This document shows positions 44,464-50,379 of a DNA stretch of 64,000 bases, in pieces; within the stretch, counting starts at the first letter, position 1; each line of letters begins with the position of its first letter. The notes below the pieces were generated by a model. The model saw only the letters and a list, made by a program, of their open reading frames with translations. It ran no database searches and was not told the DNA's origin. This stretch comes from Fusobacterium ulcerans. GTDB lineage: Bacteria; Fusobacteriota; Fusobacteriia; Fusobacteriales; Fusobacteriaceae. The stretch lies in NCBI RefSeq assembly GCF_003019675.1, contig NZ_CP028105.1:386282-450281 (forward strand), read 5' to 3'. A program made the position numbers and the translations under genes.

Positions 44464-44626
44464 ATTTAAATTCCACTTATGTGGATTTAGTCCATGTTAT
44501 CTTCTTTGATAACTGTCGAAGCTTTTGAATCGTTTAAATTCCACTTACGTGGATTTAGTCATAAGCGAAAAAGCTTTAGAAGTAACGGGGATGACATGTT
44601 TAAATTCCACTTACGTGGATTTAGTC
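44464..44626 (-). CRISPR. CRISPR mini-array 1: 3 repeats (29 nt) and 2 spacers (39 and 37 nt)
   Basis: Repeats at 44464-44492 (degenerate), 44532-44560 and 44598-44626 (GTTTAAATTCCACTTACGTGGATTTAGTC). The conserved leader-like flank is on the high-coordinate side, so the array is transcribed on the minus strand. Confidence 0.8.
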
Positions 44627-45030
44627 TCGTTAGGTTTTTTTCCCTTATTTTTCAATGCTTTCTCTACTGGTTTTTGTCTATCTCCCTTTATTTTCTATTT
44701 TTTCTTTTGGCTTTATTTTATTAGTTCTAAACCTTTCATATTTTCCAGCTTCTTTTTTTGTCAATCTGTTATAATTTTTAGAGCATTATAGACTGACAAT
44801 CTTCTATGCTAACTATTATACCACATTCATTTAATATCATTATATTATTTCTCTCTATCCCTATAAATATTTTCTACAAAATTTTCATATATTTACCCAA
44901 AATCATCTACAAGGTAAATTTCCCTCATGAGTGACGACTTTTTACTAAAATAGATTTTCTTATCTATGTTGTTTTAAAACAAAAAGGAGATATCTAGTTG
45001 TGACAGATACCTCTCCACTTGATACTATTC
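44627..45030 (-). promoter_or_regulatory. Leader-like conserved flank of array 1 (homologous to the flanks of arrays 2 and 3)
   Basis: About 80 nt are shared by all three arrays and a further ~250 nt by arrays 1 and 3. It ends in a GGAGATATCT...CAGATA hairpin. Copy 1 also carries an insertion of the 55-nt palindromic element (44898-44953). Confidence 0.45.
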
Positions 45031-45108
45031 TAATTTAAATTACTTTACTGTGTCTTTATTATATAAAGAGTCTATTTATAAATAAAGGAGATGAAATAAA
45101 CTTTTTAT

Positions 45109-45609
45109 CTAATTTGTCTTTTTATATTCTTTTGCTATTTTTTCCAACAAAATAAAATCACAGCATCTACTCCAAAAATGGCTTTTTTCTCTTTTTGATG
45201 TTATTTCTTTATACAATCTTTCAGCTGTTCTATAAATTTTTTCTTTGTTAGAACTTACATTACACCAAGAAATCTGATTTATTAATAGGTTCTTATATTT
45301 AATATCCATTTCTAAATTTATATCTTTTTCAAAATGCAATTCTTTTGGAACTGGAAACATATTATTGAAATTTATAGCTCCTAATAATCCGTTATCTATT
45401 TTAAGAAAATCTATATTATTTTTCATTTTTTTATGTTTTTCTTTTGGTGAAGTTAAAGGAATTATGTAATCAAGATTATCTATTTTAAGAACTATTCCAA
45501 TAAATTTTCTATTTGATTTAGAATTGATGCTATCCATTATTTTTTTTTCAACTTTTTGAATATATTCCATATAATCCAAATCTACTTCATAAAATCTTAA
45601 TCTTTCCAT
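45109..45609 (-). CDS. toxN: Type III toxin-antitoxin toxin, ToxN/AbiQ-family endoribonuclease
   Basis: 166 aa from ATG 45609, preceded by an AAGGAG RBS; the ORF-track start at 45708 is an artefact running into the repeats. ToxN hallmarks are present: FYEV..Y.EYI, FIGIVLKI....YIIPLTSPKEKH, NFNNMFPVP, AERLYK. Confidence 0.8.
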   Translation of the reverse strand: MERLRFYEVDLDYMEYIQKVEKKIMDSINSKSNRKFIGIVLKIDNLDYIIPLTSPKEKHKKMKNNIDFLKIDNGLLGAINFNNMFPVPKELHFEKDINLEMDIKYKNLLINQISWCNVSSNKEKIYRTAERLYKEITSKREKSHFWSRCCDFILLEKIAKEYKKTN

Positions 45610-45626
45610 AAAATTTCTCCTTAAAA

Positions 45627-49300: not shown

Positions 49301-49656
49301 GTTTTACATTTTTCATCTATTTCTAAAGTTATTTTATATTTTCTTATTTCTTTAAATTTTTCTGGAGCTGCATTATCTATTTTAGTTATAACAACACTAT
49401 TAGATGGAGCAGAGAATTTCTCTTTTCCATCATATGTAAAGCTATATCTATTCTTTTCTCTGGCTTTAACTCTAAATTCACTAATTAATATAGAGTTATT
49501 ACCTTTATCAAGAGTAGTCTGTAGAATAAAAGTATCCAGTTGTGCTTGTTTTCTATAACGAACTTTTATCTCTTTTATTCCTTTTGTGTCATAGTTAGAA
49601 ATTATAATTCTAACTATTGAACCTCTATTGGGTTTAGTTTTATTTTTATTTTCCAT
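46303..49656 (-). CDS. cas13c: Type VI CRISPR effector Cas13 (Cas13c-like), dual-HEPN RNA-guided RNase
   Basis: About 1117 aa from ATG 49656 with a GAGGAA RBS; the ORF track starts at GTG 49668. Two R-X4-H HEPN motifs are present (DLRHSLMHY at about aa 310; NLRNGICHLNY at about aa 885). It is flanked on both sides by CRISPR arrays on the same strand, with no cas1/cas2 nearby. The size matches the Fusobacterium Cas13c class. Confidence 0.75.
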   Translation of the reverse strand: MENKNKTKPNRGSIVRIIISNYDTKGIKEIKVRYRKQAQLDTFILQTTLDKGNNSILISEFRVKAREKNRYSFTYDGKEKFSAPSNSVVITKIDNAAPEKFKEIRKYKITLEIDEKCKTGNMITAAIEDLLEDDIAREGIRNPRRKASKTERKLIAESICHNYAQIAQCPVEEIDAVKIYKVKRFLSYRSNMLLFFALINDFLCKNLKNKKGEKINEIWKMENKGNNKKIDFDENYNILVAQIKEYFTKEIENYNNRIDNIIDKKELLKYSEKKEESEKNKKLEELNKLKSQKLKILTDEEIKADVIKIIKIFSDLRHSLMHYEYKYFENLFENKKNEELAELLNLNLFKNLTLLRQMKIENKTNYLEGREEFNIIGKNIKAKEVLGHYNLLAEQKNGFNNFINSFFVQDGTENLEFKKLIDEHFVNAKKRLERNIKKSKKLEKELEKMEQHYQRLNCAYVWDIHTSTTYKKLYNKRKSLIEEYNKQINEIKDKEVITAINVELLRIKKEMEEITKSNSLFRLKYKMQIAYAFLEIEFGGNIAKFKDEFDCSKMEEVQKYLKKGVKYLKYYKDKEAQKNYEFPFEEIFENKDTHNEEWLENTSENNLFKFYILTYLLLPMEFKGDFLGVVKKHYYDIKNVDFTDESEKELSQVQLDKMIGDSFFHKIRLFEKNTKRYEIIKYSILTSDEIKRYFRLLELDVPYFEYEKGTDEIGIFNKNIILTIFKYYQIIFRLYNDLEIHGLFNISSDLDKILRDLKSYGNKNINFREFLYVIKQNNNSSTEEEYRKIWENLEAKYLRLHLLTPEKEEIKTKTKEELEKLNEISNLRNGICHLNYKEIIEEILKTEISEKNKEATLNEKIRKVINFIKENELDKVELGFNFINDFFMKKEQFMFGQIKQVKEGNSDSITTERERKEKNNKKLKETYELNCDNLSEFYETSNNLRERANSSSLLEDSAFLKKIGLYKVKNNKVNSKVKDEEKRIENIKRKLLKDSSDIMGMYKAEVVKKLKEKLILIFKHDEEKRIYVTVYDTSKAVPENISKEILVKRNNSKEEYFFEDNNKKYVTEYYTLEITETNELKVIPAKKLEGKEFKTEKNKENKLMLNNHYCFNVKIIY

Positions 49657-49686
49657 AAAATTCCTCACTTTATATTAATTTAAATA

Positions 49687-49846
49687 TTTTAAATCCACTT
49701 ACATGGATTTAGTCGGAAGTAGAAAAAATACAAAAAATGATTGAATATAGTGTTTAAATTCCACTTACATGGATTTAGTCTCCAATTGGAACAGATTCTT
49801 GAACCACTGTTGTTTTAGTTTAAATTCCACTTACATGGATTTAGTC
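49687..49846 (-). CRISPR. CRISPR mini-array 3: 3 repeats and 2 spacers (37 nt each)
   Basis: Repeats at 49687-49714 (degenerate), 49752-49780 and 49818-49846 (GTTTAAATTCCACTTACATGGATTTAGTC). The conserved leader-like flank 49847-50172 sits directly upstream of cas13 on the minus strand. Confidence 0.8.
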
Positions 49847-50379
49847 CCGTTAGGTTTTTTACCCTTATTTTTCAATGTGTTTCCTAGTAGTTTTTGTCTA
49901 TCCCTCCTTTTTATTCTATTTTTTCTTTAACTTTATTTTATTATTCCTTCACCTCCCATATTTTCTAACTTCTTTTTTTGTCAGCCTTCTATAGTTTTTA
50001 CAGCATTACAGAGCGACAATTCCCTCTATTAACTATTATATCATATTCACTTAATATAGATTCTATTTTTCTCTCTATTTCTATAAATATTTTTTTTAAA
50101 GCTTTTATGTATTCAAATTATCAAAAAAAGAGATATCTGGTTACGACAGATATCTCTCTACTTGGTGCTTATATTGAAATTCGTTCTTTTGTTGTTACTT
50201 AATTATATCCTAATTTACCCAAAAATGTAAGGTGGATATTAAACACAATATCATTTTAAAATTTAATGACTTATTCTGGAAGCATACATACTTTCATCTA
50301 TATATTTAAGAATTCTTCCATCATCAAGTCTTGTGATACGAGATATCTTTAATAGAACTCCATTTTTTACTTTAGCTTT

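Follow-up and report, generated by a model that had tools for sequence, protein, structure and literature searches.

The 64,000-nt stretch of the Fusobacterium ulcerans chromosome analyzed here (NZ_CP028105.1, positions 386,282 to 450,281; the window) very probably carries, on the minus strand of a Fusobacterium ulcerans/varium-group chromosome, a working type VI-C CRISPR-Cas13c locus with a ToxIN abortive-infection (Abi) module nested within it. Read along the minus strand, the locus is composed of the terminator of a merR-family gene, leader C, array C, cas13c, a terminator, leader B, array B, the toxIN promoter, toxI, an attenuator, toxN, a terminator, leader A, array A, and a final terminator. 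The G+C content of this interval was 23 to 25%, compared with ∼30% in the surroundings. Related loci and contigs are denoted below by numbers preceded by L.

The Cas13c effector and its mini-arrays

The sole long open reading frame (ORF) of the interval occupies positions 46303 to 49668 of the minus strand. The start was placed at the ATG at 49656, as in homologues, with an AGGA ribosome-binding site 8 nt upstream; the resulting cas13c gene (46303 to 49656) encodes a protein of 1,117 amino acids (aa) beginning MENKNKTK and is followed by an intrinsic terminator with a 12-bp stem and T run (46201 to 46228, minus strand). The protein scored 1137.8 bits against NCBIfam NF038193 (VI_Cas13c; cutoff, 150) and up to 1399 bits against the PADLOC Cas13c models. 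No Pfam model matched, and a PDB sequence search matched no solved Cas13c structure. A search of 5.8 billion proteins returned 80 relatives, and every named one was a Cas13c. The nearest (96 to 76% identity) came from Fusobacterium, including Fusobacterium sp. THCT13E1 and an F. ulcerans metagenome-assembled genome; proteins from Cetobacterium, F. necrophorum, and F. perfoetens shared 40 to 44% identity and those from Tissierella, Sedimentibacter, and Fusibacter ∼30%. Two R-X4-H HEPN motifs were found, RHSLMH in the central part (residues 317 to 322) and RNGICH toward the C terminus (residues 828 to 833), and R317, H322, R828, N829, and H833 were invariant in an alignment of 13 diverse Cas13c sequences with identities down to 30%. 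The curated hidden Markov models, whose cutoffs were far exceeded, and the invariant HEPN residues identify the effector, at the level of sequence, as Cas13c and not as a member of another HEPN family; both this assignment and the two motifs had been proposed in a first-pass annotation made from the nucleotide sequence alone. A preprint on Fusobacterium CRISPR systems gives the Cas13c of F. ulcerans ATCC 49185 the same length, 1,117 aa (10.1101/2022.01.21.477265).

Copies of a 29-nt repeat (GACTAAATCCAYRTAAGTGGAATTTAAAC in the cas13c sense) were found in three clusters, with a period of 66 to 68 nt and spacers of 35 to 39 nt; seven or eight copies were good and two or three decayed or degenerate. 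Mini-array C (49686 to 49846, minus strand) has two good repeats (49818 to 49846 and 49752 to 49780), a degenerate terminal repeat (49686 to 49714), and spacers C1 (49781 to 49817) and C2 (49715 to 49751). Mini-array B (45859 to 46021, minus strand) has two good repeats (45993 to 46021 and 45927 to 45955), a decayed third repeat with a 1-nt insertion (45859 to 45889), and spacers B1 (45956 to 45992) and B2 (45890 to 45926). Mini-array A (44400 to 44626, minus strand) has three good repeats (44598 to 44626, 44532 to 44560, and 44464 to 44492), a decayed remnant at ∼44400 to 44428, and spacers A1 (44561 to 44597), A2 (44493 to 44531), and A3 (44429 to 44463), and is closed by an intrinsic terminator with a 14-bp stem and T run (44352 to 44385, minus strand), here called the D7 hairpin. 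The first-pass annotation had described three arrays of three repeats and two spacers each on the cas13 strand; the number of arrays and the strand stand, but array A has three spacers. It had also located the difference between the arrays in the repeat loop. Three variants do occur, but only that of array B changes the loop, while that of array C changes the closing stem pair from C-G to U·G in the cas13c-sense RNA.

In an alignment of VI-C repeats from seven loci (F. perfoetens, F. necrophorum, L022, L023, Cetobacterium, and Tissierella included), 14 of 29 positions were invariant, including the ends 5′-G.CTA and AAC-3′. The hairpin was 94% paired on this alignment, and three of its eight pairs had changed on both sides, with U-A, A-U, G-C, and C-G at one and A-U, C-G, U-A, and U·G at another. 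Its covariation score of 0.384 was reached by 0 of 500 shuffles, and the best slid register gave 0.082. Covariation across VI-C repeats thus supports the stem-loop that had been drawn from the window repeats alone, and the suggested comparison with the Cas13c loci of F. perfoetens and F. necrophorum places all of them in one VI-C family, 5′-GACUA...stem-loop...UUUAAAC-3′, with the predicted handle 5′ of the spacer.

The terminal repeat of array C ends 30 nt before the cas13c ATG, as it does in every close relative, and the intervening 30 nt, which carry the ribosome-binding site, are 95 to 100% conserved among these relatives. No promoter-like or terminator-like site was identified between array C and the ATG in scans for both. 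Given this spacing, array C is best placed in the 5′ untranslated region (UTR) of cas13c, the simplest reading being a single predicted transcript from leader C through array C into cas13c. Processing of these repeats by Cas13c would trim the leader of its own mRNA.

Each array is preceded by a leader. Leader C (49847 to 50113, minus strand) is of a long type, with an extended −10 sequence (TGATATAAT) at 50043 to 50035 and the core CATTGAAAAATAAGG..AAAA..TAAC beside the first repeat; the terminator hairpin of the merR-family gene (repeat D10; 50127 to 50159, minus strand), identified in the terminator scan, forms its upstream edge. Leader A (44627 to 44893, minus strand) is also long, with an extended −10 sequence (TGGTATAAT) at 44823 to 44815. 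Leader B (46022 to 46165, minus strand) is of a short type, which begins directly after the cas13c terminator, retains only the proximal 80 to 140 nt in common with leaders A and C, and has no extended −10 sequence. An identical flank of ∼80 to 300 nt had been claimed for the leader side of every array. Leaders A and C do share a long flank (78% identity over 296 nt), A-rich on the minus strand, but leader B shares only the ∼80 to 140 nt next to the repeat.

Thirteen leader copies from five strains were aligned. The long type lies upstream of the first array in every strain and of the third where there is one, and its extended −10 sequence, ∼190 nt before the first repeat, was conserved in all eight long copies (five strains). 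A 29-nt proximal core (GATAGACAAAAAC.AGTAGAGAAAGCATTGAAAAATAAGG...AAAA..TAAC), which ends 2 to 3 nt before the first repeat, was near-invariant in 13 of 13 leaders; the leader-proximal and repeat sequences of the window include CATTGAAAAATAAGG..TAAC and GACTAAAT. A GACA(A/G)AAA box ∼50 to 60 nt upstream of the first repeat recurs even in distant Cas13c loci, and no convincing −10 sequence could be assigned to it. A conserved small ORF in the long leader was considered and rejected, as the candidate peptides MKGLELIK and MGGEGIIK were not conserved and the ATG was missing in L009.

Identities between the leader copies were mosaic. Leader A resembles leader C in its distal part (∼80%) and leader B in its proximal 79 nt (95% identity), and this proximal part is closest to copies in other strains and positions. 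Distal parts of the leaders of first units were 88 to 94% alike, and those of third units were 79 to 89% identical to first units and 79 to 81% identical to each other. This mosaic pattern indicates repeated recombination between units in the strains aligned. Descent of the third units from a single old paralogue clade was rejected, as their distal leaders shared 79 to 81% mutually and 80 to 89% with first units; recombination blurs this history.

A layout of two or three units was conserved in L001, L003, L007, L009, and L024. The complete genome of Fusobacterium sp. THCT13E1 (L003) carries a leader and five repeats upstream of cas13c and a leader and five repeats downstream, L001 has two repeats upstream and four downstream, and L007 has three units of three, three, and two repeats with no toxN in the interval. 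In L009 and L010, two repeats upstream are followed by a leader with a single repeat, toxI-toxN, and a leader with five repeats. Distant Cas13c loci have one array of 4 to 23 repeats, with the exception of L023, which has arrays on both sides of cas13c. Since close relatives share the layout while distant loci mostly have one array, the multi-unit arrangement is, as judged from these loci, a trait of the F. ulcerans/varium clade and not a peculiarity of the window. Scans of a species-representative genome collection with the Cas13c protein or with the repeat found nothing. Short-read assemblies (L002, L008, L024, and other contigs of 3.8 to 4 kb) end within the flanking arrays or leaders on both sides. 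The duplicated units break assemblies, and therefore many public Cas13c genes lie on contigs of 3.8 to 4 kb in which the architecture is hidden.

A ToxIN cassette between arrays B and A

The minus strand between arrays B and A holds, at 45109 to 45805, a ToxIN/AbiQ cassette that is complete and is absent from the first-pass annotation; it belongs to the type III toxin-antitoxin (TA) systems. Its promoter (45777 to 45805, minus strand) combines TTGACA, a 17-nt spacing, and TG-TATAAT and is the only 12/12 match to the σ70 consensus in the 6.5-kb region. The toxI antitoxin RNA gene (45658 to 45768, minus strand) comprises 3.2 tandem copies of a 35-nt unit (CGGTGTACCCTACCATCAAGTGGGAGTTAAAAAAG, transcribed sense; Tandem Repeats Finder score, 215; 98% matches). 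Each unit contains an A-run, which we take to resemble the known cleavage sites of ToxN enzymes. Between toxI and toxN lies an attenuator/terminator hairpin of 10 to 11 bp with a U-run (45627 to 45654, minus strand), typical of type III TA operons. The toxN/abiQ endoribonuclease gene (45109 to 45612, minus strand) encodes 167 aa and has a ribosome-binding site before its ATG at 45612. The protein covered positions 1 to 159 of 159 of the Pfam profile PF13958 (ToxN_toxin) with 163.6 bits and also matched the PADLOC AbiQ model; PDB matches were 4ATO (Bacillus thuringiensis ToxN, the closest; E value, 9e−20), 7D8O, 2XD0, and 4GLK. These matches establish the protein by homology as ToxN, in a cassette with the canonical anatomy of a type III TA abortive-infection system; judged from family membership, ToxN would cut the toxI RNA into inhibitory units, and the system would confer abortive infection. 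One toxIN locus was listed for F. ulcerans ATCC 49185 in the type III TA census of Blower 2012 (PMC3401426). Together with the equal Cas13c length, this makes ATCC 49185 or a close relative the probable source of the window. A search of Rfam returned nothing for 44000 to 50500 at an E value of ≤1, toxI included.

Downstream of toxN lies a terminator hairpin (44987 to 45013, minus strand; terminator scan) that is a homologue of the hairpin upstream of leader C, as part of a direct repeat (44981 to 45026 and 50124 to 50169) with 83% identity. A D7 hairpin copy lies upstream of leader A (44899 to 44961, minus strand), the same element that terminates array A. This REP (repetitive extragenic palindromic)-like terminator hairpin of ∼63 nt (AAAATCACCCACAAGGTAAA..CCTCACGGGTGAT and a T run) occurs in at least three copies in the window, after array A (44349 to 44411), upstream of leader A (44899 to 44961), and after an M42 peptidase gene (∼54225 to 54290), and in relatives after the downstream array. 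In the plasmid collection the only match was a hairpin of 73 nt on an F. varium plasmid.

The cassette was found at the same position, with 88% identity, in L009 and L010. L009 additionally carries, at 7303 to 7419, an orphan toxIN promoter with a single toxI repeat and terminator but no toxN, upstream of the first CRISPR leader. The insertion of ToxIN would date from an ancestor common to the window and the L009 lineage and would have placed the cassette between two units, where it would act as an independent type III TA/Abi system, and the three-unit layout would have arisen by duplication and recombination of terminator-leader-array units.

Alternatively, a ToxIN element could have split a single downstream array, leader A then being part of the insert and not the product of unit duplication. 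ToxIN does lie exactly between arrays B and A, L003 and L001 have one downstream array and no ToxIN, and ToxIN in L009 is flanked by nearly identical leader-repeat junctions. However, L007 has its three leader-array units without toxN, and leader A is of the long type otherwise found upstream of cas13c and is accompanied by the homologue of the merR-side hairpin, which argues for duplication of a unit. The two histories are not exclusive, as L003 could have lost ToxIN together with unit A through array recombination. Overall, an origin of the third array by splitting appears unlikely, though it merits consideration, and duplication and recombination of units is preferred.

Whether ToxIN is functionally or evolutionarily coupled to the Cas13c locus was also considered, and such coupling is doubtful. 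Under addiction, ToxIN would penalize recombination deletions between the directly repeated arrays and leaders and so stabilize the multi-array layout. Under amplification, collateral RNase activity of Cas13c would deplete the labile ToxI, releasing ToxN and committing the cell to abortive infection. For RNA cross-talk there are hints in possible read-through from array B into toxI, as the terminator scan identified no terminator between array B and the toxIN promoter, and in the motif AAGUGGrAkUUAAA common to the toxI unit and the CRISPR repeat. The presence of ToxIN at the same position in a lineage whose Cas13c is 76% identical, together with the orphan toxI unit of that lineage, is compatible with a nonrandom association. 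The toxI unit matches the 3′ half of the CRISPR repeat at 12 of 14 positions (AAGTGGrAkTTAAA), each being the 3′ strand of a 5-bp hairpin with an A/U tail. As the comparison was made post hoc and 42 of 5,000 shuffles reached the score, this similarity was rejected as significant.

Spacer turnover, targets, and guide strand

No spacer was common to two of the three arrays, and none of the seven window spacers was found in any relative. This includes L024, in which Cas13c shares 96% identity and leader B is identical but the upstream array holds two different spacers. The flanks of the arrays are 85 to 96% identical among relatives. A metagenome scan with the leader-repeat junction returned only one contig, from the human gut (ORME01002877; L021), of which positions 1 to 420 correspond to window positions 44330 to 44770. 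It carries leader A and array A without the leader-proximal unit A1, retains spacers A2 and A3 and the decayed repeat, and matches the window at 95% identity in the 2.6 kb that follow array A downstream. By eye, the 141 nt of leader on the contig are identical to leader A; the BLAST value of 88% over L021 positions 1 to 245 refers to a stretch spanning the missing A1. Because exactly the leader-proximal unit is absent, polarized spacer turnover appears to be operating, and either gain of A1 in the lineage of the window or its loss in the other is what polarized acquisition predicts. Spacers have thus turned over between these strains, as read from their assembled arrays. The first-pass annotation had favored duplication of array-plus-leader units over spacer-by-spacer growth. 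Leader units were indeed duplicated, and recombined, but spacers turn over singly.

Spacers were classified with a frame-mixture codon model trained on the 44 long ORFs of the window, which called 87% of random 37-nt phage-gene fragments correctly as sense. In the cas13c orientation, in which spacer composition is 43% T and 29% A, 25 of the 29 distinct spacers, which came from the window and from four related strains, were called antisense to coding sequence and four sense (binomial P = 1e−4); for the window alone the count was six of seven. Spacer C1 (49781 to 49817) matched at 37 of 37 positions a tail-sheath-like gene (474 aa) of the viral contig IMGVR_UViG_2940373808_000003 in IMG/VR (protospacer at L011 2463 to 2499 and L012 10291 to 10327).

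Acquisition would take place at the leader-proximal repeat and would be carried out by a Cas1-Cas2 module that is encoded at another site of the genome, probably as part of a type I-B system, and that has no strand sense. A type I-B system that includes cas1, cas2, and cas4 has been reported for F. ulcerans (10.1101/2022.01.21.477265). Selection would then enrich mRNA-complementary spacers, C1 being an unselected exception.

Several points weigh against a working locus. C1, the sole spacer for which a target was found, equals the coding strand in the cas13c sense and, if transcribed in that direction, could not pair with the sheath mRNA; the codon model independently flagged it as the one sense-like spacer of the window. 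From this single protospacer, C1 is tentatively read as a spacer inserted in a nonproductive orientation by strand-blind adaptation and not as a sign of plus-strand transcription. The other six window spacers yielded no protospacer. The seven spacers, concatenated, matched none of 50,697 phage records, and exact 24- to 25-mers of A1, A2, B2, and A3 matched nothing in IMG/VR. Spacers of the window and its relatives matched none of four relatives of the C1 target phage, and in the window's own prophage they gave, at up to seven mismatches, only one seven-mismatch match at chance level. Leader B has no recognizable strong promoter, so that array B may depend on a predicted weak proximal promoter or on read-through from cas13c. 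Cas13c has been reported to be weakly active in heterologous cells. Finally, cas1 and cas2 are not in the window, as had been noted from the sequence; none was found among the genes scanned (the neighboring merR, DUF6138, peptidase, and DnaC-like loader genes and the prophage, whose small ORFs were only partly scanned) or in the precomputed Pfam contexts of the loci of relatives, and adaptation in trans is likely.

On such grounds the mini-arrays could be decaying, nonadaptive remnants left after loss of the adaptation genes, providing neither acquisition nor immunity. They are very short, with two or three spacers, each ends in a degenerate repeat, no cas1 or cas2 lies among the scanned neighbors, six of seven spacers are unmatched, and one is in a nonfunctional orientation. 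Remnants would not be expected, however, to differ wholly in spacer content between related strains with such similar flanks, or by exactly one leader-proximal repeat-spacer unit, as L021 and the window do. The internal repeats are intact and their stem changes preserve structure, the strong antisense bias implies selection for RNA targeting, and cas13c is intact with invariant catalytic residues. Decay into inert remnants is therefore improbable.

For the active locus favored here, transcription of the CRISPR RNA (crRNA) in the cas13c direction is favored as well, as a prediction from sequence. Every array, in the window and in all relatives, has its conserved flank and its degenerate repeat at opposite ends, the usual leader-to-trailer polarity, which points to transcription in the cas13c direction. 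The stem reads CCAC..GUGG in array A, CCAU..GUGG in array C, and CCAU..AUGG in L003, a path from C-G through U·G to U-A that preserves the helix only in cas13c-sense RNA. Folding predicted the same nine-pair bulged hairpin for all variants on this strand, and the array C repeat in its plus-strand form lost one pair (−3.6 versus −6.9 kcal/mol). TGnTATAAT motifs occur only three times on the minus strand of 44000 to 50500, in leader C (50043 to 50035), in leader A (44823 to 44815), and upstream of toxI (45785 to 45777). Terminators on the minus strand were located after the merR gene, cas13c, toxN, and array A, with seven terminator-like sites compared with 1.1 expected. According to reviews (PMC9454418), Cas13c, like Cas13a and Cas13d, has its direct repeat (DR) at the 5′ end of the crRNA. 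Each array would be transcribed from its own leader, array B possibly by read-through from cas13c. By analogy with Cas13a/c/d, Cas13c would cut the pre-crRNA inside the repeats to give guides in which a repeat handle lies 5′ and the spacer 3′, and pairing of a guide with a phage transcript would switch on the HEPN RNase, degrading RNA in cis and in trans and arresting the infected cell.

Plus-strand transcription, opposite to cas13c and with Cas13b-like guides carrying the repeat 3′ of the spacer, would make C1 complementary to the sheath mRNA and would suit a plus-strand repeat that begins GTTT, as many CRISPR repeats do, and a nearly palindromic hairpin of which most variants fold on both strands, but it is highly improbable, as 25 of 29 spacers are opposite in polarity to C1, decayed repeats and conserved leaders would be at the wrong ends, the array C variant would give a C·A mismatch, the minus strand carries the extended −10 promoters and the terminators, array C lies so close to the cas13c start codon that a separate cas13c promoter would have no room, and the published DR position is 5′ of the spacer. 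An array transcript from the plus strand had been named as evidence that would count against the initial description, and polarity, stem variants, promoters and terminators, and spacer bias all favor the minus strand.

Comparison with known systems and genomic context

The locus is not new in kind: both Cas13c and toxIN of F. ulcerans have been published, and other CRISPR types are known to have multiple arrays whose leaders are duplicated. The type VI-C reference, F. perfoetens ATCC 29250 (C2c7), has the same effector family with central and C-terminal HEPN motifs, and type VI-C loci likewise have no adjacent cas1/cas2 or known accessory gene. Their repeats of 29 to 30 nt with 5′-GACUA and ...AAAC-3′ ends, their covarying hairpin of 5 to 8 bp, and their spacers of ∼36 to 37 nt correspond to those found here, and the same guide polarity, with the DR 5′ of the spacer, is predicted. 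The effector is equal in length (1,117 aa) to that of F. ulcerans ATCC 49185, which, with the F. necrophorum orthologue, has been used in mammalian and insect knock-down screens. Most other Cas13c loci examined have single arrays, upstream in F. perfoetens and downstream in F. necrophorum, L022, and Tissierella, as well as in Cetobacterium, where the array is inverted. In this clade, by contrast, the arrays number two or three, are very short, and have a leader copy each; one array is fixed in the cas13c 5′ UTR. The inverted downstream array of Cetobacterium (L019 8477 to 8704) would be transcribed toward the 3′ end of cas13c, which shows that array and effector do not always share an orientation in type VI-C.

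Shared repeat types and homologous leaders are also seen in multi-array loci such as type I-F CRISPR1/CRISPR2 of Pseudomonas and Pectobacterium and type I-E CRISPR-I/II of Escherichia coli. The units of the window differ in their unusually small size, in running without exception in the direction of the effector gene, and in the terminator hairpins that bracket each of them. A precedent for adaptation in trans is provided by Flavobacterium columnare, in which type VI-B arrays acquire spacers via a co-resident type II-C module, followed by selection for mRNA complementarity.

The cassette shares with the ToxIN/AbiQ systems of Pectobacterium atrosepticum, Bacillus thuringiensis, and Lactococcus (AbiQ-antiQ) the full-length ToxN toxin, the upstream tandem-repeat RNA gene, the strong promoter before the repeats, and the hairpin terminator between repeats and toxin gene. 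Unlike known ToxIN, it is nested between two type VI mini-arrays on the same strand. CreTA of type I cas loci is likewise a TA system with an RNA antitoxin inside a CRISPR-Cas locus and, like it, ToxIN could make loss of the locus costly. CreA, however, is crRNA-like and needs Cascade to repress the toxin, whereas ToxI neutralizes ToxN directly; the resemblance is positional only, and nothing here shows dependence of ToxIN on Cas13c.

No description of an array fixed in the 5′ UTR, of terminator-bracketed mini-units, or of ToxIN nested between arrays was found in the literature. Of the Cas13 subtypes, Cas13c is the least characterized, and ignorance of its native biology has been given as part of the reason why it performs poorly as a tool. 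The locus could serve as a native blueprint, with its predicted guide strand and handle, three mini-arrays predicted to be separately promoted and terminated, spacer turnover without local cas1/cas2, and a spacer set that is mostly, but not wholly, mRNA complementary. With an array in the 5′ UTR of its own effector, the cas13c mRNA leader might be self-processed, and the interleaving of two RNA-based abortive-infection systems makes the locus convenient for studying, in a natural setting, whether a CRISPR RNase and a type III TA system interact. The understanding of how type VI systems work is unchanged by these findings.

To the right of the locus are genes for a merR/GyrI-like regulator, a DUF6138 protein, a peptidase, and a solute-binding protein, in synteny with relatives. 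To the left are genes for a 285-aa protein, a DnaC-like loader, an S24 repressor, and an integrase, followed by a Mu-like prophage (∼2 to 38 kb). This transposable prophage (∼2000 to 38000) includes genes for a MuA-type transposase (35937 to 37826), a MuB-like protein (34959 to 35927), the large terminase (25908 to 27254), portal (24303 to 25796), major head (21796 to 22908), and baseplate (12282 to 13436) proteins. Beside it lie genes for a tyrosine integrase and an S24/LexA-like repressor (38457 to 39242 and 40211 to 40828).

In F. necrophorum (L018 1 to 13027), cas13c and its array lie between a BREX (bacteriophage exclusion) methyltransferase gene and pglZ/brxA/brxB. The F. perfoetens cas13c (L017 1 to 4242) follows a type I restriction-modification system and Mrr, and that of L022 (3039 to 4946) follows an AAA_15/AAA_21 ATPase gene and a gene encoding 202 aa. 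Since other Cas13c genes lie in or beside BREX, type I restriction-modification with Mrr, and an ATPase pair, the ToxIN neighborhood of the window fits the usual pattern of defense islands.

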